Below are positions 13,150 through 50,573 of a DNA stretch of 64,000 nt, one piece after another. The first letter of the stretch is position 1. Every line of letters begins with the position of its first letter. The stretch lies in sequence record MT446408.1. One strand, 5' to 3'. Below the pieces are notes generated by a model, which saw only the letters and a program-made list of their open reading frames with translations, ran no database searches and was not told the origin of the DNA. The translations under genes were made by a program, and so were the position numbers. Origin of the DNA: Escherichia virus TH35.

Positions 13150-13413
13150 ATGGTACGCATCCTTGAACGTTACAAAAATGAAGCTACTGGCGCAATCGCT
13201 TTCAAACGTCTTTTGGTCAAAGAAATTGACGGAATGTTTCGCATTGTTAAAGAGTTTGATTATGGCAACGGTGCTGGGGTGAATACCGTTATCATGCCTG
13301 GCATCAAGGCGTATAAAACCTTAAAAGGCGCTGAGAAGGCTTTGTCGGCTTGGAAACCTGAACGTTATCAAATGACCCGTGTTGAAGGGCTAATGCAAGA
13401 AGGTAAAATATGA
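13150..13413 (+). CDS. hypothetical protein (87 aa)
   Basis: ORF after promoter at 13088; ATGA overlap with next gene. Confidence 0.5.
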   Translation: MVRILERYKNEATGAIAFKRLLVKEIDGMFRIVKEFDYGNGAGVNTVIMPGIKAYKTLKGAEKALSAWKPERYQMTRVEGLMQEGKI

Positions 13414-13967
13414 GCAATATTAATTGGGAAGATGATTTGCCGCAGGTCGCTCCTGAGAGCATTCAAGAGCGCCTTGCGCGCTTAGTATCTGAATTGGCAG
13501 AACGCCAAGAAGCTTTGACAGAGCTTGAAGATGAAGCTGATATGCAAAAGCAGCGCATCAGTGAAATCAAGACTGTTTTACTTCCTGGCGTCATGGATGA
13601 GCTTGGCGTGTCTGAAATCAAGCTTGAAGACAAGACCAAAATCAAGGTCGAGTCGAAAGTGAATGCTTCAATCAAGAAAGAAAACGAATTAAAAGTTTTC
13701 GATTGGCTTGTCAACAACGGTTACGGCGGCCTGATCAAGTCCAGCGTCACGGCTGAGTTCGGTCGCGAAGAAATCGAACAGGCGCAAGAGATTGTTGCCG
13801 CGCTGCGTGAAGATGGTGTTGAAGCAACGTTGAAACAAGGCGTTCATTCTGCTACACTGAAGTCATTTGTAAAAGAACAACTGGAAGCGGGCAATCCAGT
13901 TAGTGAAGATATTAGCGTTTTTGAATACAAAGAAGCTAAAATAACCTTGCCTAAAAGCAAAAAGTAA
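13410..13967 (+). CDS. hypothetical protein with N-terminal coiled coil
   Basis: 185-aa acidic protein in the replication/recombination module; no motif recognised. Confidence 0.5.
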   Translation: MSNINWEDDLPQVAPESIQERLARLVSELAERQEALTELEDEADMQKQRISEIKTVLLPGVMDELGVSEIKLEDKTKIKVESKVNASIKKENELKVFDWLVNNGYGGLIKSSVTAEFGREEIEQAQEIVAALREDGVEATLKQGVHSATLKSFVKEQLEAGNPVSEDISVFEYKEAKITLPKSKK

Positions 13968-14026
13968 TTTAACCTTTATCTTGAAATCAGGTTGCCACGA
14001 AACTTGATACTATAGGAAAATATCAA

Positions 14027-14887
14027 ATGTCTAAGAAAGAAACTACCGAAGTTGCAGTGAAAAACACCCAGATGTCCGCTATGGCTGATTTTGTCGACAT
14101 GACCGATTTTGGCGCTGGTTTTGAAGGTGCCGATGCCGATGCGTATGCCATTCCTTTTATCGTCGTACTGCAGAAGATGTCTCCTATGGTCGACGAAGAT
14201 GATCCAAAACACGTTCCTGGCGCAAAAGCTGGCATGCTTTACAACACCGTTACTGGTGAGTTGTATGACGGCAAGAAAGGCGTGCAGATCATCCCTTGCG
14301 CATTCAAACGCACCTTCATCCTTTGGGGCGGTCGCGAGTCCGACGATAAAGGCTTTAAAGGTGAATTCACCAAAGAGCACGTTGATGCAGAAGTAGCGGC
14401 AGGCCGCGCTGTTGAGATCAACGGTAAAGTGTTTGTGCCGGACGAAAACGGCAAAGTGCACGAGAAGAAATCGCCTTACTACGCAGATACACGTAACCAC
14501 TTCGTAATTCTGTTGAACGAAGAAACTGGTGAATTTGGTAGCGCAATGTTGTCTTTGACTTCTTCGATGATCAAGCCGTCTCGCATGCTGATGACCGCGC
14601 TGCAGCAGAAGAAAGTTCAGACTCCGCAAGGTCTGAAAACGCCGCCGACCTTTATGAACATCGTTCGCATGGGTACTGCATCCCAGTCCAAAGACGGGAA
14701 CACCTGGTCTGTTCTGAAGTTTGAGTTGGAAGGTCTGGTGCAGGACAAAGGTCTGTATGAAGTCGCCAAAGCATTCCACAACGATGTAGTTGGCGGCAAC
14801 GTTAACATTGACCGCAGCAAGCAGGAAGAAGCAAGCGGTGCCGCTGGCCCTGTTAATGAAACTCCGACCGACGCAGAAGAGTTTTAA
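14027..14887 (+). CDS. hypothetical protein; possible ssDNA-binding/annealing protein
   Basis: 286 aa ending in acidic tail ...ETPTDAEEF (terminal Phe) reminiscent of phage SSB C-termini; function inferred only. Confidence 0.45.
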   Translation: MSKKETTEVAVKNTQMSAMADFVDMTDFGAGFEGADADAYAIPFIVVLQKMSPMVDEDDPKHVPGAKAGMLYNTVTGELYDGKKGVQIIPCAFKRTFILWGGRESDDKGFKGEFTKEHVDAEVAAGRAVEINGKVFVPDENGKVHEKKSPYYADTRNHFVILLNEETGEFGSAMLSLTSSMIKPSRMLMTALQQKKVQTPQGLKTPPTFMNIVRMGTASQSKDGNTWSVLKFELEGLVQDKGLYEVAKAFHNDVVGGNVNIDRSKQEEASGAAGPVNETPTDAEEF

Positions 14888-14905
14888 TCGACAATCAAAT
14901 CAACA

Positions 14906-14930
14906 AGGCTGCCGATTGGCGGCCTTTTAT
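14906..14930 (+). terminator. rho-independent terminator
   Basis: AGGCTGCC-gatt-GGCGGCCT stem (one G-U pair) followed by TTTT. Confidence 0.5.
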
Positions 14931-14944
14931 TTATCTGGTGCATC

Positions 14945-15463
14945 ATGATAGAAAGAATTGTACCACTCCTGAAGATTATGGCCCTTGTTGGCGCGTTTGC
15001 CGCTGGATCATACGTTGAAGACCTGCAGCAAACCAACGCATCACTGGCCAAGGATAACCAATATCTGACATCGCTTAATGAGCGTAAGGACAAGATAAAT
15101 GCACTCGAAGAGCAAATTGCATCTTTACAGGTTGAATCGGCATCGGCATATGAGAAAGGTCGCCAGGAAGCGCAACTGGTTGCTGATGACACTATTGCTC
15201 GTTACAAGTCTGGGAATATCAAGTTGCGCGAGCAACTCAGCTGCTCCCGTGAGTTACTCAGGAGTGTGCCCGACTCTGCGACCACTGGACGCCTCTCTAT
15301 CCCAGAAGGAAACTGTGGACTATCAGAAGAAGATGTCAGATTTCTTGTTCAGTTCGCCGCAGAAACAAACCGATTAAAAGATAAAGTTAATAGCTTGATT
15401 GATACTTATAATCAGGCTAAAATAAAAATCGATCAATTCAATGCATCAAAGGAAAATAAATGA
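14945..15463 (+). CDS. i-spanin (Rz-like)
   Basis: N-terminal TMD IVPLLKIMALVGAFAAGSYV, periplasmic coiled coil, conserved Cys; carries embedded +1-frame lipoprotein ORF. Confidence 0.6.
   Translation: MIERIVPLLKIMALVGAFAAGSYVEDLQQTNASLAKDNQYLTSLNERKDKINALEEQIASLQVESASAYEKGRQEAQLVADDTIARYKSGNIKLREQLSCSRELLRSVPDSATTGRLSIPEGNCGLSEEDVRFLVQFAAETNRLKDKVNSLIDTYNQAKIKIDQFNASKENK
15150..15377 (+). CDS. o-spanin (Rz1-like) lipoprotein, embedded in i-spanin gene
   Basis: ATG 15150; signal MRKVARKRNWLLMTLLLVTSLGISS-C with lipobox ISSC; short Pro-containing mature part; wholly inside 14945-15463 in another frame. Confidence 0.55.
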   Translation: MRKVARKRNWLLMTLLLVTSLGISSCASNSAAPVSYSGVCPTLRPLDASLSQKETVDYQKKMSDFLFSSPQKQTD

Positions 15464-16053
15464 AACAGATTTATGCAAACATTCGCCAGTGGGCTTCTGA
15501 CCGTAACATCATCCAAGGTTGCGACCTTAAGGACCAATACCCGAAGCTTATCAGCGAGTTTGGGGAGTTAACCGACCACGTTGATCAACTCCATGACCTT
15601 GTGTTCTTTGACCATGAAATTGAATATACAGAGCAGGCCATCTGTGACCTGCAGGCCGCAATCAAGGACGACATTGGTGATTGTCTTGTTGTATTGACTA
15701 TCCTTGCCGCGCAAAATGGTGCAAAAATCGAAGACATCAACGGCGGCGGTTGCGCTGACAAAGGTGCCCACCCTCACTCGTTTATCCTTCGCTTGGCAAA
15801 GACTCTCGGACGGCTTGGTGACGCCATTGCTAAAAATCAGAGCATGGATATTGATGTCACCATCATGGTCGCAGTCGATTACCTTTCCGGCGTAGCTCAT
15901 GATTATGGCCTTCGCTTATCCGACTGTGCGCAAGCGGCCTACGAAGACATCAAGGACCGCAAAGGTGTCATGTACAACGGCACGTTTATCAAATCGACTG
16001 ATCAGGCTTACGCCTATGCGCTGGAACAAGTAATGAATGAGGGGAAAGAGTGA
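15460..16053 (+). CDS. MazG-like nucleotide pyrophosphohydrolase (putative)
   Basis: all-alpha NTP-PPase-like motifs KLISEFGELTDHV and DIGDCLVVLTILA. Confidence 0.5.
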   Translation: MKQIYANIRQWASDRNIIQGCDLKDQYPKLISEFGELTDHVDQLHDLVFFDHEIEYTEQAICDLQAAIKDDIGDCLVVLTILAAQNGAKIEDINGGGCADKGAHPHSFILRLAKTLGRLGDAIAKNQSMDIDVTIMVAVDYLSGVAHDYGLRLSDCAQAAYEDIKDRKGVMYNGTFIKSTDQAYAYALEQVMNEGKE

Positions 16054-17027
16054 TGGCAGGAGAGATCAAAGCGCTTAAGCCAATGAAAGGCTGTCAACGT
16101 AAGCAAATCATCGAACGCGGTGAAGACGTTCCGTTACCTTGCGGATTGTCATTTAAGGTTGATGGCATACGTGCTATGGCTTATGACAAGCTTCCTATGG
16201 GTACGTCTGGAATGCCGCTGCGAAACGTTCAAATCAAGAAAGAGTTCCTTTTCTTGGGCGATTTGATTTACGGCCTTGATGGTGAACTCATCGACGGCAA
16301 TCCTAATGACAAGAACGTCATGCAGCAGGCATATACTGCGTGCATGAATACTGATGCAATAACTAACTTTACATGGTGGGTGTTTGATGACTTCAGCGAC
16401 CCCGATTTACCTTTTGAAAAGCGTTATGCGAACTATCGGGCTAGAGTTGCTGAGGTCAATCAGTATCTCTTGGACCATGGCCACAGACCATTCCTTCGCG
16501 CCCTTGAATACCGAAACATTGAGAATATGGATCAATACGCGGCAATGCAAGTCGAAGCGGACCAGCTTGGATATGAAGGCTTATACGGCAAATCGTGGAC
16601 GGGCAAATACAAGCATGGTCGCGCAACGCCGAAGTCGCGTGATGTATGGAAAGACAAGCCGTGGACCGACGAAGAAGGACAGATCATAGATTTCGTCGAG
16701 ATGATGGAGAATAACAACGAAGCGTTCATTGATGAGCTTGGTCGCACAAAACGATCAAAGGAAGCTGAAGGACTCGTTGCCAAGGGTTATCTCGGATCAT
16801 TTGTCGTAGTCAATCCAAAGTATGTAGATGAGAAGGGTGAGATGATTCCTTTCCGTGTGTCCGCAGGTTCAATGCCTATGGCAGAGCGGAAGATGCTTTG
16901 GGATAATCGCGAAAATTATCGCCACAAATACTTGACGTATAAATTCTTTAACTTTGGCATCGTTGACGTGCCGCGCTCTGCGCTTTATAAATGCTTCCGT
17001 GATATTACCGATATGGAGTATTTTTAA
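16050..17027 (+). CDS. ATP-dependent DNA ligase
   Basis: motif I KVDGIR (adenylation Lys), motif III GLDGEL, motif IV EGLYGK, motif V K-x-K. Confidence 0.85.
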   Translation: MMAGEIKALKPMKGCQRKQIIERGEDVPLPCGLSFKVDGIRAMAYDKLPMGTSGMPLRNVQIKKEFLFLGDLIYGLDGELIDGNPNDKNVMQQAYTACMNTDAITNFTWWVFDDFSDPDLPFEKRYANYRARVAEVNQYLLDHGHRPFLRALEYRNIENMDQYAAMQVEADQLGYEGLYGKSWTGKYKHGRATPKSRDVWKDKPWTDEEGQIIDFVEMMENNNEAFIDELGRTKRSKEAEGLVAKGYLGSFVVVNPKYVDEKGEMIPFRVSAGSMPMAERKMLWDNRENYRHKYLTYKFFNFGIVDVPRSALYKCFRDITDMEYF

Positions 17028-17100
17028 CACACTGGATAAATAATTGTTGCGTATAATCTATCGCGCCGTTTTATAGAATTTAATATACAGTGTATACATA

Positions 17101-17131
17101 AAGCCGGAAATTTCCGGCTTTTCTTTTATTT
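17101..17131 (+). terminator. rho-independent terminator
   Basis: AGCCGGAAA/TTTCCGGCT perfect hairpin followed by T-rich run. Confidence 0.65.
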
Positions 17132-17202
17132 ACTTTCGGCGTATTTACTTTCAAAACCTTAAGCCTATACTATTAATATTCATAATCAAAAGGTGAATTA
17201 TA

Positions 17203-17745
17203 ATGAAAGCGAACAAATTAAAGATTGTTTTGATCATCATCATGGCTATGCTGACAGTTATATTCTTCACCAAGACTGCATCGGCTGAAAATATGTTCAC
17301 GCCGCCGAATGGAAGTGCAAAAGTTTTGACAAGATATTTCAACAATGGGCAGTCATTTGAGTTTTGCTGGAATAAATACGACGTAATAAAAGAAAGATTT
17401 GACAAAGAAAAGATGTGCGTAATGAATGATCGCGGTCGGCAGGTCGTGTCGTTTGTGTTCGGAATGTCGATGGCAAAAGTTGATGCCCCTGAAATCGTTG
17501 TCAGGTATAATACATTGGACAGCGGCCTTGTCGACAAGACATACCCTGTTGCAGTAGACAGCAGGACAGGCGGCGCACTAATACTCACTCCAGAAGATAA
17601 ATCAGATGTCGTTAACATGCTCATCAACAGCAAAGACGTAATCGTGTTTTATCACATTGAAGGCGTATCAGACTACCAAATGGCCTACTATCCACTGCCC
17701 TTGAGAGATGCTTCAGGTAATGTTAAGACACAGGAAGTGCGTTGA
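17203..17745 (+). CDS. secreted/periplasmic protein of unknown function
   Basis: signal peptide MKANKLKIVLIIIMAMLTVIFFTKTASA; own transcription unit between two terminators. Confidence 0.55.
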   Translation: MKANKLKIVLIIIMAMLTVIFFTKTASAENMFTPPNGSAKVLTRYFNNGQSFEFCWNKYDVIKERFDKEKMCVMNDRGRQVVSFVFGMSMAKVDAPEIVVRYNTLDSGLVDKTYPVAVDSRTGGALILTPEDKSDVVNMLINSKDVIVFYHIEGVSDYQMAYYPLPLRDASGNVKTQEVR

Positions 17746-17759
17746 CATGGGTGGTAGTT

Positions 17760-17972
17760 ATGCAGAAAGATTTGGAAGAAAACAAAAGGCTGAAAAAGGC
17801 TTTGACGTCTCAAATCTTGTCCCTGTTGGTAAAGCTTATTGGGGAGTCAATTAGCAACAAGGTGGCACGGGCCGCGATTGTAGGTGTGATTGGTATGGCG
17901 GGGTATTACTTCGACTTGCCAGACATTGATACAAGTTCCGCTCCGCCCGTCCAAGTTGAAGCCGTAAAATAA
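17760..17972 (+). CDS. small single-TMD membrane protein (holin candidate)
   Basis: ATG 17760 (track start 17742 is TTG); hydrophobic segment ARAAIVGVIGMAGYYF; convergent with endolysin. Confidence 0.4.
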   Translation: MQKDLEENKRLKKALTSQILSLLVKLIGESISNKVARAAIVGVIGMAGYYFDLPDIDTSSAPPVQVEAVK

Positions 17973-17974
17973 AC

Positions 17975-17996
17975 AAAGGCCCATATGGGCCTTTTT
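17975..17996. terminator. bidirectional rho-independent terminator between convergent genes
   Basis: AGGCCCA-tat-TGGGCCT hairpin flanked by A-run and T-run. Confidence 0.65.
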
Positions 17997-17997
17997 C

Positions 17998-18642
17998 TTA
18001 CATGACTGCTAGTGCATCCTTGTAACGCTTTCTTCGCAACTCACCGTGGTTCGCTGCGTTCGGCGCGGCCCCATTAATCCGCTTAACGGTTGAATCAAAA
18101 TTCCCTGCATCCGCAAGAGGAATACAACCACTATTCTTAAAGAACCATGCCGCGCTGTCGGCAATGTATTTTGGTTCAGTCAGAATATCAGGATTGTTCA
18201 ATGCATCATAGCCTGATTGACGCGTATATTCAGCATAGTTCGCTTTGCCAGTCAGCTGAATGGCACCACGGCCACGGTACTTCCAACCGTCGCCAGATGC
18301 TACCGAACCGTTGCCCATGCGGTTTGCGTATGTATTATTGGCGATTTCCATAGGTTTACGTGCAATCGACAGGGCCAATGAGTTCGGGGCGCTTCCAGCA
18401 CGACCGTTGACGCTGTAACGACTAGGCCATGTATTGGCAAGGCCCTGTGCAGAGTAGTTGAGATTTTCCACAAAGGTCTTCAAGCCGCCCGTCTCTACTC
18501 CTACGTTTGCAAGGAATGCTGCAATGGCATTCTTGCTTTTTATTCCGTAGTGCTCACAAGCCTGCTTGAAAGGATCCACCCAATTTTCTGCAACATCCGT
18601 GCTGCATCCTGTCCCTTTAGATATTACGTTTGCATTAATCAT
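17998..18642 (-). CDS. endolysin, glycoside hydrolase family 19 (chitinase-like)
   Basis: AAFLANVGVETGG and KYRGRGAIQLTGKANY match GH19 catalytic-region motifs; AAGGTG RBS. Confidence 0.8.
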   Translation of the reverse strand: MINANVISKGTGCSTDVAENWVDPFKQACEHYGIKSKNAIAAFLANVGVETGGLKTFVENLNYSAQGLANTWPSRYSVNGRAGSAPNSLALSIARKPMEIANNTYANRMGNGSVASGDGWKYRGRGAIQLTGKANYAEYTRQSGYDALNNPDILTEPKYIADSAAWFFKNSGCIPLADAGNFDSTVKRINGAAPNAANHGELRRKRYKDALAVM

Positions 18643-18650
18643 AAATCACC

Positions 18651-20438
18651 TTATGCGCTTCTGTACCAGCCATTCAAAACAACGTATCGCGGCAAAGTCG
18701 CAACAGCCGTTGGCACCGACTGCCCTGCATTGCCAGTGTTACCGACCACATCGTGAGTGTGAGCGGGAAGGGTATAGCTGTGGCTGTGATTGCCAGCGTA
18801 ATTTATATTCAACCCATGGGTGTGTGATCCAGAAGATTGAATATTATGAACGTGGTTGCCATTAGTTGACGTATTGTATTTGTAGTTATCCCAGTCGCCG
18901 CCTTTGCGACTTCCGAAGTTGTTGTGTGTCCCATCATAAACGCCGTACCGCGCATCGCTAGTATTGGCTTCACCCCAGCTACTGTCATGGTGGTGGTTGC
19001 CTGCCGTGTCCATTCCGTGCACGTGAGCGCCGTTTTGACTGGTATCGCCTGTGTGGTTGTGGTTGCCTGCGTCTCCAGTGGTATTGGACCATGGACCACT
19101 TTGTCGCGTGGTAATGTTCACGCTGTGATTGTGGAGAGGAAGCATGGCGGCGGTAAGGGTAACAGAGTCTGCTCCGCCTGTATCAAGACCGTTTCGTGCA
19201 GCGCCGGACGTGCGAATCACCATGTTATCAGGCAGTCGTGTCCATACCTGGCCGTAAGCGCCCAGTTTAGTATTCGGGTTGGTCCCGTTGGTGAGGAATC
19301 GAGTCTCACCGACTTCGAACACATCACCCATAGTGATCAACTTCGCAGCCAAAGCATCGAGTTGGCGCTTTGTAACAAACTGTTGCGGCTCAGTAGCATC
19401 AACGCCGATTTGCGCCGCGCCAAACGCCTGAAGGAGACGCCAAACAGTTCCGTCATAAATGATGGTGAATGGCAGCAATCCTACGATAGCGCCAGCTGGC
19501 AACTCGCCGCCGTCGAATCCAAGAACGGCAACTTTGTTTACACCAATGGTCACGGTGACAGGTCCGGTAGTCGTTACATCATTGACGATTGTCAGGCGAC
19601 TACCTGCTGACGGAGGCCATGAATACCCTGCTGGAACGGTGAGAATTATATCTTGCGCGCCTTTACCTGATGCAAGATTCGGCGTTCCAATTTGCACATC
19701 TTGAACAGTGGCATTTTGAATCCAAGCACTCCAAGCACCAGAAGTATAAGAGCGAGTAAACAAATAGCCATTCATTGATGTATATTGCTGCAAGGCAAAG
19801 GTTTGCGCATCGACCTGCCAAGCGCAGACCTGCAGTCGACCTGCAACCTTCGTTGCGCCAACCGCATTCGGGATGTTAGAGCACAGAGCGGCGACGGCAT
19901 CGGATTGAATGACGATAGTTGTGGATGTCGTGATGTTATCGAAGTCCACAAAACTTGAAATCAATCCGCGAACAAAGTACGGGTTTTGCGCATCGCCGCC
20001 AGCAGGCATCGGAATGTATTTTCGCGCTTCGCTGGGCAGTGTTAATTCCTGCCAAGATTCCGTTTCTCCGTTAGCTGGGACGGCGCTTGTGTTGCCGTCG
20101 ACCACGCTCTGAAAGATGCGCCACTCAGGTGCTGAAGGCGTTCCAGAGTTGCTGACAACGATGGCATTTTTCGGGTATCCATCAGGCTTCAAGTCAGAAG
20201 AGAAATATTGTTGAGCGCCATGATCTTGAATAAACATAAGGTTGTCTGTGATCAAATTCAGCAACCAGTTCATCGATTCGCGCTCAACAGCTTTCGCGGC
20301 GACGTTTCCAGCCTCCAGAGCAAGCGCATAGTCAGGGGTGTAGCCGCGCTGGAAGTTTACATAACCGCTTGGGCTTGCATCCGGCACCACGGATACATCA
20401 CCGCTTTGCGCGAAAGGTCTGTTAATAAGTGTTGGCAT
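18651..20438 (-). CDS. tail fiber protein with His-rich HxH repeat C-terminal region
   Basis: start set at ATG 20438 (GAGGAA RBS, clears upstream stop at 20449); C-terminal NHNH/GNHSH/HTH repeats as in T4 gp37/gp12-type fiber tips. Confidence 0.7.
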   Translation of the reverse strand: MPTLINRPFAQSGDVSVVPDASPSGYVNFQRGYTPDYALALEAGNVAAKAVERESMNWLLNLITDNLMFIQDHGAQQYFSSDLKPDGYPKNAIVVSNSGTPSAPEWRIFQSVVDGNTSAVPANGETESWQELTLPSEARKYIPMPAGGDAQNPYFVRGLISSFVDFDNITTSTTIVIQSDAVAALCSNIPNAVGATKVAGRLQVCAWQVDAQTFALQQYTSMNGYLFTRSYTSGAWSAWIQNATVQDVQIGTPNLASGKGAQDIILTVPAGYSWPPSAGSRLTIVNDVTTTGPVTVTIGVNKVAVLGFDGGELPAGAIVGLLPFTIIYDGTVWRLLQAFGAAQIGVDATEPQQFVTKRQLDALAAKLITMGDVFEVGETRFLTNGTNPNTKLGAYGQVWTRLPDNMVIRTSGAARNGLDTGGADSVTLTAAMLPLHNHSVNITTRQSGPWSNTTGDAGNHNHTGDTSQNGAHVHGMDTAGNHHHDSSWGEANTSDARYGVYDGTHNNFGSRKGGDWDNYKYNTSTNGNHVHNIQSSGSHTHGLNINYAGNHSHSYTLPAHTHDVVGNTGNAGQSVPTAVATLPRYVVLNGWYRSA

Positions 20439-45094: not shown

Positions 45095-46555
45095 TTAAAG
45101 GTTAGAGAAGAAGCCGGATGCTGCAACAATTGGTTTCATCAACGCCATGATTGCTGCGTCCGCTTTGTTAGGCGATTTGACTCCACGCTTTGCCATATCC
45201 TTTTTCGATTCAACTTTAAACTTACCAAGCACAGACGTGTCTTTGCGCGGCGCTGACATCTCAAAAAGAAATGTCTCAATTTCTTCCGCAGACCAAGCAG
45301 GAATCCCAAGTTCTGGAATGCCGTCTGTGTCGATGGAAATCAGCTCATCAGTCGGGTATACAGCCTGCCCTGTTGCATACTCATATGTCTTCCTGAATCG
45401 TTCGGCAATCTCAGTCCATTTTTGCGCTTTTATGTTTGCGAAATGGTCTTTATTGAGTATTTCAACGTGTGGTAACTCAAGGAAGACGTCATCAGGATCA
45501 TCAACAGCACCTTGCGCGTTGAACGCATTAAATTCGATTCTTGGGAATGTTGGATTTTCATGGATTGCATACTCATTAAGCTCATCAAATTTTGAACCAG
45601 CAAATGCACCAACACCGATGGCGTCATAGGTAATTGATGCGCCGAATGTTAATGCATCTTTCCAAACTCCGCTTGCGGACTTAAGCAATTCATCTTCCAG
45701 ACCTTCCCATGTCTTGATGCCGCGCAATACGTTGCCCGTGACAAATGCTGTGGCGTTTAAGTCGTCGCCGTCGTCTGCCACGTCAAAGCCTATACGGTTA
45801 GACCCTGACAAGCTCCATCCCAACGTAGGGTGTTTGTGGAGGTTTAGCGCGGCCTTGACGAATGCACGGTTGATGACCGACTTGTCGCCGCCTGTCTTCG
45901 GTACTCCGCCATAAACGTGTTCTGCCTTTTTCGGGTCGCGCTCATACATGCCAGCGATAACGTCCAGCATTGTTTGCGACAAGAATGGATTGTCCTGCCA
46001 GTTAATCTTCTTAACAATGGCATTTTTAGGCGGTCGCATAACAAAGTTCTGGTAGACGAAATCAGCCTCTTCATCAGGGTTAAATATGATCCATATTTCG
46101 GACCCTTCCTTACGAATTGTCGGCTCAATAATATCCCACTGCTCTTCAGTCAGCGCGTGCGCTTCTTCAAGCCAAAGAACGTCAACACCTTCTGTTGATT
46201 TGATTTCGTCAACGTTGCGTGCGATACCGTAAAATAAGAATTCAGATTTTGTTCTTTTGTGTTCAATGGAGTTCTTTAATAAGTTGAACTCATCTTTGAA
46301 ATCAGAAATTTCTATTTTGTCTTTTAATAGCGTATATACTGATTCAGAAATCTTGTTCTGGAATTGTCGAACGCAAAGGAATTTTAATTTAAAATTTGCC
46401 GCCAAATAAATAGCAAAACCAGCGGCATCATGCGATTTGGAAGATGCACGACCGCCGTATATAACTTTGTATCGCGCTTTCGTCTTCCAGACTTCTCTTA
46501 AAGCAGGATTCAACTGGTACATGACTTTCCAATTATGTGTTAATATTTTATTCAT
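45095..46555 (-). CDS. terL: terminase large subunit
   Basis: N-terminal ATPase with P-loop-like YGGRASSKS and Walker B VLWLEEAH; C-terminal nuclease-like domain; 486 aa. Confidence 0.8.
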   Translation of the reverse strand: MNKILTHNWKVMYQLNPALREVWKTKARYKVIYGGRASSKSHDAAGFAIYLAANFKLKFLCVRQFQNKISESVYTLLKDKIEISDFKDEFNLLKNSIEHKRTKSEFLFYGIARNVDEIKSTEGVDVLWLEEAHALTEEQWDIIEPTIRKEGSEIWIIFNPDEEADFVYQNFVMRPPKNAIVKKINWQDNPFLSQTMLDVIAGMYERDPKKAEHVYGGVPKTGGDKSVINRAFVKAALNLHKHPTLGWSLSGSNRIGFDVADDGDDLNATAFVTGNVLRGIKTWEGLEDELLKSASGVWKDALTFGASITYDAIGVGAFAGSKFDELNEYAIHENPTFPRIEFNAFNAQGAVDDPDDVFLELPHVEILNKDHFANIKAQKWTEIAERFRKTYEYATGQAVYPTDELISIDTDGIPELGIPAWSAEEIETFLFEMSAPRKDTSVLGKFKVESKKDMAKRGVKSPNKADAAIMALMKPIVAASGFFSNL

Positions 46556-47850: not shown

Positions 47851-48192
47851 ATGAACAATACTTTATCACAACTGCTAATCTGGACAATTGCTGCTATCAT
47901 CGGCACCGTTATTATGATGTCGAGTGCAAAGGCCGATACGGATATTTGCGGCAGACTTATTTCTGAGAATGGCGAGATTTATTATGGCAACTCAAAAGGC
48001 GATTATATATCGCCTGAGGTTTGCGCTCAGAAGAAAGCAGAAATGCAAAAGCAGTATCATGAAGATCAATCTATATCTCAAGCCGCGCTGATTGAATTAA
48101 GTATATCAGCCATCATCTTTCTAATCGTTTTTATGCTCATTATTAAACCAGATAATGGCAGCCACCGTCATATTCCTCTCAAAAGAAATTAA
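47851..48192 (+). CDS. membrane protein with N-terminal signal/anchor and C-terminal TMD
   Basis: start at ATG 47851 after AGAGG RBS (track ORF begins 47659); LLIWTIAAIIGTVIMM and SISAIIFLIVFMLII. Confidence 0.45.
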   Translation: MNNTLSQLLIWTIAAIIGTVIMMSSAKADTDICGRLISENGEIYYGNSKGDYISPEVCAQKKAEMQKQYHEDQSISQAALIELSISAIIFLIVFMLIIKPDNGSHRHIPLKRN

Positions 48193-48230: not shown

Positions 48231-50573
48231 ATGCCAAGGCTAATATTCAAAAACAACTTTGAGGTCGCGCTGGCTCAACCAACGACGACTTCAGACACCA
48301 CAATCACAATTCGCTCAGGGTCGGGCTTTCCGACTTTGGGCGCAAACGAGCGTGTAGTGGCGACAATCGTCGACGCTGCAACAGGCCTCCAATTCGAAAT
48401 CGTCACAGTAACAGCCGTGGTTGGAAACGTCCTGACCGTGCAGCGTGCTCAAGAAGGAACTGCAGCGCGTGCATGGGCTGCTGGTGACATGCTTTCCATT
48501 CGAACTACTGCCGCGACTTTGACGGGTACTGTCCGAAACTTTGGCGCTGTTCCATCCGGTATGAATTTGAACGCTCTTACTGGCAGCTGGTTTGGGCAAT
48601 ATTATCAGAACTCTGACGGCGCAGCCTCTTCTGGGTTGAACTATCCTGTTGAGCAGGCAGGAGTCCTAGAGGTGTTGCAAACAGGAGTATCGACCGAAAG
48701 TTGCATCCAAAAATACACATCATATTCCATCAACAACACTTACCAAAGAAGATTCAATGCGCAAAATAGCACATGGTCTCCTTGGGTGATGATTTATTCA
48801 GAATCAAGCGTCATACCTGTGTCCAACGGCGGCACGGGTCAAACAACCATTCAGGGGATGAAGTCCGCGTTTGGATTCGGTACAGTTGCTGATCAGAATG
48901 TCGTCCCTACTTCCATGGGCGGTACGGGCTCAGCAGACAATGCACAAGCATGGCTGAATATTCGTCCACAAGGGTCAACGCCGCTCGCTGGTGACCCAGT
49001 TAACGATTATGATGCCGCGACCAAGCGTTGGGTTGAAAACTTAGTTAACACAGGCACCATTGGTCCAAGCATGAACGGTGTCATGAACTATGGCGTTGGT
49101 GATTTTCACTTACGCGACAGTCGTGCATATATTCAACCGTATGAAGTCGTTGCTGATGGGCAGTTATTAAACCGCGCTGACTGGCCTGAACTTTGGTCAT
49201 ATGCGCAAATGCTGTCGCCTATTGCAGATGCTGACTGGCTGGCGGACCCGCAAAAGCGCGGAAGATATTCCTTGGGGAATGGCACCACCACATTCCGAGT
49301 GCCAGACCGCAACGGCGTCCAGACAGGGTCAATAAAAGAGCTTTTCTGCAGAGGTGATGGCGGCAACCCGACAAACGATGGAATGGTGTATAATGCTGCT
49401 GCGCCTAACATACTTGCCTATACGCCTCACACAGTGCTCACCGCTGCCAGTGCAAAAGGCCAAGTGGCCACTGATGGGTCTTTCACATCAACGACATCCA
49501 CTAGTGGTGTTTGGCCTACGTCCGGTGGCGAAGGCCTGTATGCGAATATCCGTTTCGACGCTTCCCAATCATCTCCATTGTATGGTCGATACGGAATCGT
49601 GGACAACCTGATACCAAAGAACTTTATTGGCGTTTGGGTGATTCGTGCATCGGGTGGATTTGTTGCCGCGAATACGTCTTGGAGTGTTATAAATGGTGAT
49701 GGCACAAGACCGCCTGGCGGGACGAGAGTTGAATCAGGGAAAGTAAGCGTTGAATACAAGATTGGAACTTCCATTGAAGCGCAAGGAACGGTTTACACAT
49801 CAGCAACGATGGGTGGTTCATACTCCACCCAGTTGTCCGTAAAAAACGTCACTGCAGGTAAAGAAAAAGACATCAGCTTGACTGATGACGGTCTATTGTG
49901 GTCTGACCGATTTGCGGCACGTTACGGAACATTGATGTCATGGGCTGAAACAGGTTCAAAGTCAGGCACCTTCTCGATGACGAGACAGGCACTTGGTCAA
50001 AACTATGGCTTTAACAGCCTTATCAGCGGTAGTCAATCTGTTAATACAGGATACGCAACTACTGTTCACCATGGCATGATTCACAACAACAATGGAAGTT
50101 TTGCGCAAGCTACGTGGATTGCTTCTGGTGATGATGATGCAAAGTATCAAACAAAGATGCAAATCCAGCCTAACGTAGAGGATGTATTTTTTTCAGTATC
50201 CGTTCCAGGCTCTGACAGCTTCTTTACTCTTCAAAAGAATGCCATCTCTGATGAGAATTTGAAGCATGACATACGACCAGGAACGGTTGAAAAAGCATGG
50301 AGCAACCTTTCATCGCTGGAGTATGTAACGTTCATATACAACAATGATGAAAAGGAAAGGATAAGAAGGGGTATTATCGCTCAACAGGCAGAGATTATTG
50401 ACCCTTTGTATGTTAAGACGATTAAATTCTATCCGAGTGAAGGTGTCGAAGTTGAACAAAAACAACTTGACACGACACCTATGCTTTTGGATACGATGCA
50501 CGTGGTGCAGGAGTTGATGAAAAAAGTTGAATCCCTAGAGGCAGAGATAGCCGCGCTGAAAGCAGCAAAATAA
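48231..50573 (+). CDS. tail fiber/spike protein with C-terminal intramolecular chaperone (peptidase S74-like) domain
   Basis: C-terminal SDENLKHDIRP...GIIAQQAEIIDPLYV...LLDTMHVVQELMKKVESLEAEIAALK matches the auto-cleaving chaperone domain of endosialidase/L-shaped fibers. Confidence 0.7.
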   Translation: MPRLIFKNNFEVALAQPTTTSDTTITIRSGSGFPTLGANERVVATIVDAATGLQFEIVTVTAVVGNVLTVQRAQEGTAARAWAAGDMLSIRTTAATLTGTVRNFGAVPSGMNLNALTGSWFGQYYQNSDGAASSGLNYPVEQAGVLEVLQTGVSTESCIQKYTSYSINNTYQRRFNAQNSTWSPWVMIYSESSVIPVSNGGTGQTTIQGMKSAFGFGTVADQNVVPTSMGGTGSADNAQAWLNIRPQGSTPLAGDPVNDYDAATKRWVENLVNTGTIGPSMNGVMNYGVGDFHLRDSRAYIQPYEVVADGQLLNRADWPELWSYAQMLSPIADADWLADPQKRGRYSLGNGTTTFRVPDRNGVQTGSIKELFCRGDGGNPTNDGMVYNAAAPNILAYTPHTVLTAASAKGQVATDGSFTSTTSTSGVWPTSGGEGLYANIRFDASQSSPLYGRYGIVDNLIPKNFIGVWVIRASGGFVAANTSWSVINGDGTRPPGGTRVESGKVSVEYKIGTSIEAQGTVYTSATMGGSYSTQLSVKNVTAGKEKDISLTDDGLLWSDRFAARYGTLMSWAETGSKSGTFSMTRQALGQNYGFNSLISGSQSVNTGYATTVHHGMIHNNNGSFAQATWIASGDDDAKYQTKMQIQPNVEDVFFSVSVPGSDSFFTLQKNAISDENLKHDIRPGTVEKAWSNLSSLEYVTFIYNNDEKERIRRGIIAQQAEIIDPLYVKTIKFYPSEGVEVEQKQLDTTPMLLDTMHVVQELMKKVESLEAEIAALKAAK

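Follow-up and report, generated by a model that had tools for sequence, protein, structure and literature searches.

The genus Wifcevirus comprises myophages of E. coli and Shigella with genomes of about 68 kb. One of these phages, ECML-117, was catalogued as carrier of an 'embedded' two-component spanin (2CS) that formed a singleton family for both the i-spanin and the o-spanin; phage PY54 was placed in a separate singleton family (Kongari et al. 2018, BMC Bioinformatics 19:326, PMC6139136). Table S4 of that study locates the i-spanin gene of ECML-117 at 45375-45894 and the o-spanin gene, coding for 75 aa, at 45461-45689, with nesting offsets of 205 and 86 nt, and the i-spanin is described with 63% helix and one coiled coil (Tables S2/S3). 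The GenBank record of phage Mansfield (MK903282) contains an 'i-spanin' and an 'o-spanin' CDS at the same place together with an annotated upstream terminator, and the BASEL phages Bas98-101 carry an annotated 'Rz-like spanin' plus an 'o-spanin' there. The spanin pair described below is thus already known, being catalogued and annotated in close relatives. A literature search for experiments on the Wifcevirus-type spanin family retrieved none; the catalogue (Kongari et al. 2018) and the genome announcements are purely bioinformatic, and the announcements for Mansfield and MyoSmar do not mention lysis genes.

We analysed a stretch of 64,000 nt from Escherichia virus TH35 (sequence record MT446408.1), referred to here as the window. 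The 5.6-kb region around the spanin locus shares 92-94% nucleotide identity with 28 Wifcevirus records, among them Ro157lw, TH32, Mansfield, ECML-117, WFH, FEC19 and Bas98-101. The genus is PB1-like and a distant relative of the Pseudomonas PB1-like phages (Pbunavirus). The i-spanins of ECML-117, Mansfield and Bas98-101 are 96-99% identical to that of the window at the protein level; the nesting is the same (205 nt from the start of the i-spanin gene, 86 nt from its end), and so are the flanking genes. Only a few substitutions separate the pair of the window from those of its Wifcevirus relatives, for instance M12 instead of the L12 present in 14 of 14 compared sequences. The locus is composed of the following features:

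14945-15463, plus strand: i-spanin gene, Rz-like, 172 aa, ATG start (ORF list, PHROG 1327, hydropathy, AlphaFold2, homology, annotation of Mansfield MK903282, Tables S1/S4 of Kongari et al. 2018 for ECML-117)
15150-15377, plus strand: o-spanin gene, predicted Rz1-like outer-membrane lipoprotein precursor of 75 aa (frame, lipobox rule, conservation, homologues, ECML-117 offsets)
15099-15149, plus strand: 17 codons that may lengthen the o-spanin precursor at its N-terminus to 92 aa (ORF list, annotations of Mansfield and Bas98-101)
15086-15090, plus strand: Shine-Dalgarno-like AAGGA, 8 nt upstream of the ATG at 15099 (sequence; annotated as o-spanin ribosome binding site in Mansfield)

We are highly confident that the two genes constitute an Rz/Rz1-type two-component spanin in the embedded arrangement. 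The initial annotation had proposed the same from the sequence alone, and the assignment gained support from a match to PHROG 1327, from homologous +1-frame lipoproteins in three other lineages and from the existing literature and annotation; its coordinates, when transposed, reproduce exactly the ECML-117 offsets of 205 and 86 nt (Kongari et al. 2018, Table S4). The gene anatomy, the transmembrane domain (TMD), the helices, the lipobox, the conservation of two reading frames and the homology to spanins in canonical lysis cassettes were computed in this study and compared with the criteria for two-component spanins given by Summer (2007) and Kongari et al. (2018).

The most hydrophobic 19-residue stretch of the i-spanin covers residues 5-23 (mean 1.70, Kyte-Doolittle) and is the only hydrophobic segment of the protein. 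A single N-terminal TMD at about these residues and a type II inner-membrane topology are predicted. Single-sequence AlphaFold2 modelling yielded helices at residues 20-88, 94-114 and 128-170 with a mean pLDDT of 72, and divided the periplasmic domain into two helical blocks joined by a linker at about 115-127. As modelled, this helix-linker-helix arrangement is the Rz-type layout. The N-terminal TMD and the coiled coil originally claimed for the 172-aa open reading frame were thus recovered, the former as the hydropathy maximum and the latter as long predicted helices. The two cysteines of the i-spanin, Cys100 and Cys124, both lie in the predicted periplasmic part. Cys100 is kept in all four i-spanins compared (those of the window, Pantoea phage LIET2, Yersinia phage PY54 and Burkholderia phage Mica), and an equivalent of Cys124 in three of them, the exception being Mica. 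Together with Cys40 of the o-spanin precursor, the two residues are candidate periplasmic cysteines for homotypic intermolecular disulfides.

Residues 6-160 of the i-spanin aligned with positions 9-156 of the 158 positions of PHROG 1327, an Rz-like spanin family, at E=2.1e-26; the same profile was matched by the i-spanins of PY54 (8e-35) and LIET2 (4e-16). Distant homologues annotated as Rz or i-spanin were detected by tblastn in PY54 (1e-12), LIET2 (2e-12) and Mica (3e-6). Neither of the two spanin proteins matched the Pfam families PF03245 (Phage_lysis, the lambda Rz family) or PF06085 (Rz1) at E<=0.1, and an NCBIfam scan of both gave nothing meaningful. The LIET2 homologue scored 22.3 bits against the Pfam lambda-Rz family, below the cut-off of 25.4. 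The i-spanin is therefore a spanin by architecture and PHROG membership, outside the Pfam lambda-Rz family as currently modelled. An IMG/VR scan for further relatives returned only four loci, all near-identical, and added no diversity.

The o-spanin open reading frame lies wholly inside the i-spanin gene in the +1 frame. Its ATG at 15150, the start that had been proposed, is found at an offset of 205 nt, and the frame spans the fraction 0.39-0.83 of the i-spanin gene. From this ATG the signal peptide reads MRKVARKRNWLLMTLLLVTSLGISS, followed, from the lipobox Cys onwards, by CASNS... The candidate was assessed with a PROSITE-type lipoprotein rule, {DERK}6-[LIVMFWSTAG]2-[LIVMFYSTAGCQ]-[AGS]-C, with a Cys range of 15-35. 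The precursor agrees with this rule: the Cys is residue 26, the n-region contains K/R, and Ala occupies position +2. The lipoprotein signal expected by the initial annotation is thus present; the lipobox, given there as ISSC, is better written LGISS/C, of which ISSC represents the last four residues. Across all six frames of the 64-kb window the rule was matched at only three places, the other two being a Rossmann GxGxxG motif and an antisense frame in a tail-fibre gene. Chance is therefore a most unlikely reason for a match within an Rz-like gene. The mature protein would consist of 50 aa with one further Cys (precursor position 40) and four prolines. The Ala at +2 is not an inner-membrane retention residue, and an outer-membrane lipoprotein is predicted. 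Against the PHROGs the o-spanin produced only a weak match (phrog_4306, E=0.0028).

Conservation was assessed in 15 distinct Wifcevirus sequences, and all of them retain both open reading frames, both candidate ATGs and the lipobox Cys. The third codon positions of the i-spanin frame, which are the second positions of the nested frame, were polymorphic at 19 of 80 sites outside the nested frame and at 8 of 93 sites inside it (Fisher p=0.011). The i-spanin genes of LIET2, PY54 and Mica each contain a lipoprotein frame in +1 as well, that of LIET2 being 46% identical to the o-spanin of the window (E=8e-18). The i-spanin of the window shares merely 26-31% identity with those of these three phages, yet the +1-frame lipoproteins are homologous. 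An alignment of the four lineages revealed as invariant o-spanin columns the lipobox Cys, P41, P45, L50, D57, M62 and F65-L66-F67; three of the lineages retain the second Cys, and Mica has one a few columns away.

A different explanation would hold that only the membrane-anchored coiled-coil protein of 172 aa is real, that the nested frame is an untranslated by-product and that something else disrupts the outer membrane. This idea draws on the weak PHROG match of the nested frame, on the ATG at 15150, upstream of which inspection of the sequence found no comparable Shine-Dalgarno motif, and on the outcome of synonymous recoding of the i-spanin gene. In the recoding trials a +1 or +2 frame of at least 75 codons still arose in 24% of cases and a lipobox-bearing one in 3.5%, so openness alone is weak evidence for a nested gene. 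However, synonymous recoding often reproduces the nested frame because two of the three bases of every +1 codon are preserved. As the null is not independent of what it should test, it was dropped and replaced by the six-frame lipobox scan of the window and by conservation across lineages. The recurrence of +1-frame lipoproteins with the same motifs in three distantly related phages, the invariant lipobox, Cys and ATGs within Wifcevirus, the depressed third-position variation in the overlap and the good Shine-Dalgarno motif ahead of the ATG at 15099 all argue against a by-product, which we consider very improbable. The nested frame, judged by its sequence features and their conservation, is most probably a real gene and no product of chance.

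The position of the o-spanin start is a separate matter, on which the sources differ: Kongari et al. (2018; PMC6139136) used the 75-aa form, whereas the curators of the GenBank records of Mansfield and Bas98-101 picked the ATG at 15099 and hence 92 aa. As a variant of the spanin reading, the protein might be made from the upstream ATG or from both starts, with a dual start modulating its amount or its export kinetics. We regard this as possible, with the balance leaning slightly against it. The ATG at 15099 follows directly on an in-frame TAA and, unlike the ATG at 15150, is preceded at 8 nt by AAGGA. Both ATGs are invariant, and between 15099 and 15149 none of the 17 third positions of the i-spanin frame varies among the 15 sequences, as compared with about 24% elsewhere. 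This invariance fits either coding or a constraint on an initiation region. Initiation at 15099 would, on the other hand, shift the lipobox Cys to position 43, beyond the PROSITE range of 15-35 and thus the usual range of lipoprotein signals, and would create an atypical basic n-region of 25 residues, while the n-regions of the homologues in other phages measure 3-8 residues. The mature lipoprotein is identical with either start.

For the comparison with lambda, the features of Rz/Rz1 were taken from the established literature and from Kongari et al. (2018). The predicted architecture of the pair in the window agrees with that of lambda: an inner-membrane protein of type II topology, whose periplasmic part forms two helical blocks joined by a linker, is combined with a small outer-membrane lipoprotein encoded entirely within the +1 frame. 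The i-spanin has two periplasmic Cys in both systems, and the mature o-spanin has one. Unlike in lambda, the pair of the window lies outside a holin-endolysin-spanin cassette and does not share a late operon with the endolysin. A tblastn comparison with lambda Rz/Rz1 sequences as queries found no significant similarity at the locus, and PF03245/PF06085 were negative. Lambda Rz1 is considerably more proline-rich than the o-spanin of the window with its 4 Pro in 50 residues.

The closest described counterparts outside the genus are ORF63 of PY54 with its nested frame and gp065 of LIET2 with its nested frame, which are true sequence homologues of both components of the window. They share with it the +1 frame and the o-spanin columns P41, P45, L50, D57, M62 and F65-L66-F67. 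For neither nested frame is a CDS annotated in the RefSeq records of LIET2 and PY54. The sequence comparison thus reveals the spanins of ECML-117 and PY54 as detectably related, despite their assignment to separate singleton families. In PY54 the pair stands directly after holin and endolysin, unlike in the window; the i-spanin gene of Mica likewise follows holin and endolysin in a canonical cassette.

In the window the surroundings of the pair are of another kind, and include these features:

14905-14936, plus strand: intrinsic-terminator-like hairpin with a 9-bp stem containing 6 G-C pairs, a 4-nt loop and a T-rich tail (terminator scan, fold, annotation of Mansfield)
15460-16053, plus strand: MazG-like pyrophosphatase gene (PHROG 1992, E=1.5e-62), a neighbour and not part of the spanin
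17998-18642, minus strand: GH19 endolysin gene (Pfam PF00182, 34.4 bits with a cut-off of 25.5; PHROG 181, E=4.6e-70; annotated as endolysin in relatives)

Upstream of the i-spanin gene, on the same strand, genes for the DNA polymerase III alpha subunit, a helicase and Pam3 gp33-like and gp34-like proteins are located; mazG and a DNA ligase gene follow downstream. The terminator-like hairpin at 14905-14926 (-16.9 kcal/mol, z=-2.5) belongs to an element that ends about 9 nt before the i-spanin ATG and divides the gp33/gp34-like genes from the spanin-mazG-ligase genes. No sigma-70-like promoter was recognised between the hairpin and the i-spanin ATG. The ATG of mazG overlaps the i-spanin stop codon (ATGA), which suggests that both genes are co-transcribed and translationally coupled.

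The tail-fibre operon on the minus strand ends with the endolysin gene, behind which lies a terminator-like hairpin of its own (17994-17975); therefore, spanin and endolysin belong to different, convergent transcription units. They are 2,535 bp apart, counted from the spanin stop, and four open reading frames lie between them (mazG, DNA ligase, a frame of 180 aa and one of 70-76 aa). The initial annotation had described a pair in the replication module, separated by about 2.5 kb and several genes from a GH19 endolysin encoded on the other strand, and had concluded that the lysis functions are dispersed; both statements are borne out. The usual linkage of a spanin to the holin-endolysin cassette is absent in the window. 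This linkage is not a defining feature of spanins, because the spanin genes of T4 are unlinked as well: PseT.3/PseT.2 are situated apart from holin and endolysin, as in the window (Kongari et al. 2018, Fig. 8 legend, PMC6139136). The T4 genes are separated, not embedded, and bear no sequence relationship to the pair of the window. In the T4 genome, the spanin genes sit among genes of nucleic acid metabolism.

The neighbourhood could also be taken to mean that the 172-aa coiled-coil protein, anchored in the membrane, acts in DNA replication or in host takeover instead of lysis, perhaps by tethering a replication complex to the membrane. The flanking genes for DNA polymerase III alpha, helicase, gp33/gp34-like proteins, MazG and ligase, the overlap of its stop codon with the mazG start and the missing linkage to the endolysin would agree with such a role. 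Yet in both PY54 and Mica the homologue comes third in a holin-endolysin-spanin cassette, the bulk of the i-spanin is predicted to be periplasmic with an outer-membrane lipoprotein as partner, T4 demonstrates that spanin genes can sit apart from holin and endolysin, and in phage Carpasina (see below) a spanin-like pair that includes a lipoprotein occupies the same place. A role in replication is thus extremely improbable, and a spanin remains the preferred reading.

The endolysin has neither an N-terminal signal nor a SAR domain in its translation. With a canonical endolysin that lacks a signal, a holin must be expected somewhere. No holin family match was obtained in a hydropathy scan of all non-nested open reading frames of at least 40 aa with PHROG and NCBIfam scans of the candidates, and no holin is annotated in positions 1-45,607 of the Mansfield record. 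The earlier statement that no holin adjoins either lysis gene holds insofar as none is recognisable; it is weakened by the holin expected for this endolysin and by two uncharacterised frames, 17203-17745 and 17760-17972, that both adjoin the endolysin gene. The first of them (180 aa) has an N-terminal hydrophobic segment and a poor AlphaFold2 model (pLDDT 45.6). It was considered as a T4-T-like holin and rejected, as all five of its known relatives retain an AxA motif for signal peptidase and two Cys; these sequence features make a secreted periplasmic protein more likely than a holin. The second corresponds to phrog_5165, adjoins the endolysin in E217 and Spe5P4 too and has no clear TMD. The best remaining holin-like candidate, to judge from its sequence, is the frame 47851-48192 (113 aa), with a signal-like N-terminus, a C-terminal TMD and a basic tail. 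Taken as a whole, the points that speak against a spanin at this locus are the negative Pfam and NCBIfam scans, the missing similarity to lambda Rz/Rz1, the weak PHROG match and few prolines of the o-spanin, the ATG at 15150 lacking a Shine-Dalgarno motif, the unusually long n-region that the ATG at 15099 would give, the strong terminator upstream with no recognisable promoter behind it and the unrecognised holin.

From the established biology of lambda Rz/Rz1 we infer localisation, complex formation, disulfide-linked dimers, membrane fusion and regulation by murein for the pair of the window. The 172-aa product would sit in the inner membrane with type II topology and dimerise by its helical periplasmic domain. 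The nested +1 product would be exported, lipidated at the lipobox Cys and, with Ala at +2, sorted to the outer membrane as a mature protein of about 50 aa. The C-terminal parts of both proteins may bind each other, so that the complex would span the periplasm, threaded through the murein. Once the GH19 endolysin (17998-18642) is released by a holin and destroys the murein, the spanin complexes would be freed and would fuse or disrupt the inner and outer membranes, which would complete lysis. In lambda, spanin complexes stay inactive as long as the murein is intact, so that early or constitutive synthesis of spanins would by analogy be harmless. The transcription unit of the replication genes, mazG and ligase included, might accordingly also express the pair, apart from the endolysin and without damage, because the intact murein would hold the spanins in check.

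The position of the spanin is no oddity of this phage but a conserved variable slot of the PB1-like supergroup, whose members share the backbone polIII-helicase-gp33-gp34-[slot]-mazG-ligase-...-endolysin-tail fibre. In Wifcevirus, the slot contains the embedded spanin pair. In Xanthomonas phage Carpasina (Carpasinavirus) it holds two genes that make up a separated spanin-like pair, one for a protein with TMD and coiled coil and, after it, one for a PHROG 11951 lipoprotein ('Rz-like spanin', E=1e-20). The slot of Pbunavirus E217, Myosmarvirus Spe5P4 and Bcepfunavirus BCSR52 is occupied by a Cys-free membrane protein of 201 aa (phrog_1544). The N-terminus of this protein is hydrophobic and rich in Gly/Ala; it also has a coiled coil and, towards the C-terminus, two TMDs, and it matches the holin family PF11351 weakly (E=0.02). 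The spanin is thus no stray in the replication module but occupies a variable place in which envelope-active genes recur.

PB1 and E217 share the genome backbone with the window and have gp52 (phrog_1544) as slot protein. Unlike the window, Pbunavirus possesses a unimolecular u-spanin near the terminase gene (E217 gp09, with an AWAC lipobox and a C-terminal TMD), and the multi-TMD holin candidate gp11 of E217 is likewise located near the terminase gene. No homologues of the u-spanin gp09, the putative holin gp11 or phrog_1544 were found within the window. The label 'U-spanin' in Pbunavirus JJ01/E215 refers to a DUF7307 (gp33-like) gene that has neither TMD nor lipobox, and was rejected as a misannotation.

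In itself, the identification of the pair in the window is of little importance, as it confirms an annotation already existing for Wifcevirus. Many Wifcevirus records in GenBank still label the spanin genes 'hypothetical' and could be corrected, and the o-spanin start is annotated inconsistently across the sources (75 aa or 92 aa). Co-expression of the spanin with early or middle replication genes might conceivably play a part in the latent period of Wifcevirus, which is reported as very short; the infection cycle takes roughly 10 min. Novelty lies solely in the comparative lead on phrog_1544, and this concerns other phages and not the window. As one and the same slot contains a spanin pair in two genera and a membrane protein in three others, the comparison points to phrog_1544 as a candidate for a lysis protein in the PB1-like phages of Pseudomonas, which are used in therapy. 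The more far-reaching proposal, that lysis genes have a conserved place in the slot between the gp34-like gene and mazG throughout the PB1-like supergroup, is in our judgement rather doubtful. If it is true, non-orthologous replacement at this place would single out phrog_1544 as a lysis protein that has so far gone unrecognised and has an envelope-disrupting or holin-like action. This would bear on phages such as Serratia MTx, for which neither a holin nor a spanin has been detected.

The spanins of phages ECML-117 and PY54 were placed in two separate singleton families in a survey of spanins (Kongari 2018; PMC6139136). In our comparisons, the i-spanin of Yersinia phage PY54 (L011 2471-2992) matched the i-spanin encoded at window 14945-15463 with an E value of 1e-12, and the o-spanins of PY54 and the window had a motif in common. 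Judged by sequence, homology between the PY54 and ECML-117 spanins is detectable for both components, and the spanin of Pantoea phage LIET2 belongs to the same group. Neither the LIET2 nor the PY54 RefSeq record annotates a CDS for the nested o-spanin ORF.

Wifcevirus genomes shared 96.3-98.5% identity with the window across the spanin locus (14885-15483), compared with 91.5-94.5% across the surrounding 5.6 kb (13400-19000). The higher identity of the spanin locus is consistent with a double coding constraint. Among 15 distinct Wifcevirus sequences, approximately 24% of the i-spanin third codon positions in the parts of the gene without overlap were variable, and no third position within the 51 nt of 15099-15149 was. 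This invariant stretch is the interval that separates the two candidate ATG start codons of the o-spanin; its invariance may result from coding, as part of a 92-aa precursor, from a constraint on the initiation region, or from chance.

The i-spanin gene is preceded by the following element:

14905-14936, + strand, strong terminator-like hairpin immediately 5' of the i-spanin ATG

Since no promoter-like site was present after this hairpin and ahead of the i-spanin gene, the genes for spanin, MazG and ligase seem to rely on read-through. Short eclipse and latent periods were reported for vB_Eco4M-7 and ECML-117, whose development is finished within about 10 min (PMC7048862).

Further small ORFs were inspected near the endolysin gene and elsewhere in the window:

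17203-17745, + strand, 180-aa ORF between the ligase and endolysin genes
17760-17972, + strand, small phrog_5165 ORF
L005 8691-8942, phrog_5165 ORF of Pbunavirus E217
L003 9760-9981, phrog_5165 ORF of Myosmarvirus Spe5P4
47851-48192, + strand, 113-aa ORF directly 5' of a 780-aa ORF (48231-50573)

The 180-aa product is probably a secreted periplasmic protein. Its hydrophobic N-terminal segment terminates at a conserved AxA motif, and it contains two cysteines that are invariant. It matched only five clusters in a database of 5.8 billion proteins and no family in Pfam, PHROG or NCBIfam; Serratia phage Spe5P4 has a weak positional homolog (E=0.004), and the AF2 model (pLDDT 45.6) was too poor for use. 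The phrog_5165 ORF (70-83 aa), adjoining the endolysin gene in convergent orientation, is kept in Wifcevirus, Pbunavirus and Myosmarvirus. Its product has an amphipathic helix; a short stretch is hydrophobic as well, but no clear TMD is present. The 113-aa ORF lies before the positional counterpart of the 'tail fiber' gene CPT_Mansfield_014. Its product combines a signal-like hydrophobic N-terminal segment, two mid-protein cysteines and a highly hydrophobic C-terminal TMD (KD 2.9) followed by a basic tail. It had no family match and is the best remaining candidate in the window for a holin-like or membrane protein.

A spanin label has also been attached to a DUF7307 (Pam3 gp33-like) gene:

13410-13967, + strand, DUF7307 gene of the window
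L005 4627-5247, DUF7307 gene of Pbunavirus E217

In phage JJ01 the Pbunavirus ortholog was called 'U-spanin' via the E215 RefSeq record (PMC9583000). This identity was rejected, as the gene encodes neither TMD nor lipobox, and the JJ01 label looks like a propagated misannotation. The true u-spanin of E217, with an AWAC lipobox, is gp09 (L023 3643-4026).

The slot flanked by the gp34-like gene and mazG differed in gene content by genus when the window, E217, Spe5P4, BCSR52 and Carpasina were compared:

Window 14945-15463, embedded spanin pair of Wifcevirus
L022 5442-6369, separated spanin-like pair gp38/gp37 of Carpasina
L005 6289-6894, phrog_1544 gene of Pbunavirus (E217 gp52)
L003 6438-7043, phrog_1544 gene of Myosmarvirus (Spe5P4)
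L021 5408-6010, phrog_1544 gene of Bcepfunavirus (BCSR52)

The phrog_1544 protein is a cysteine-free membrane protein of 201 aa with no homolog in the window. Because the same slot carries a spanin pair in Wifcevirus and a spanin-like pair in Carpasina, phrog_1544 is a possible candidate for an unrecognised lysis protein.
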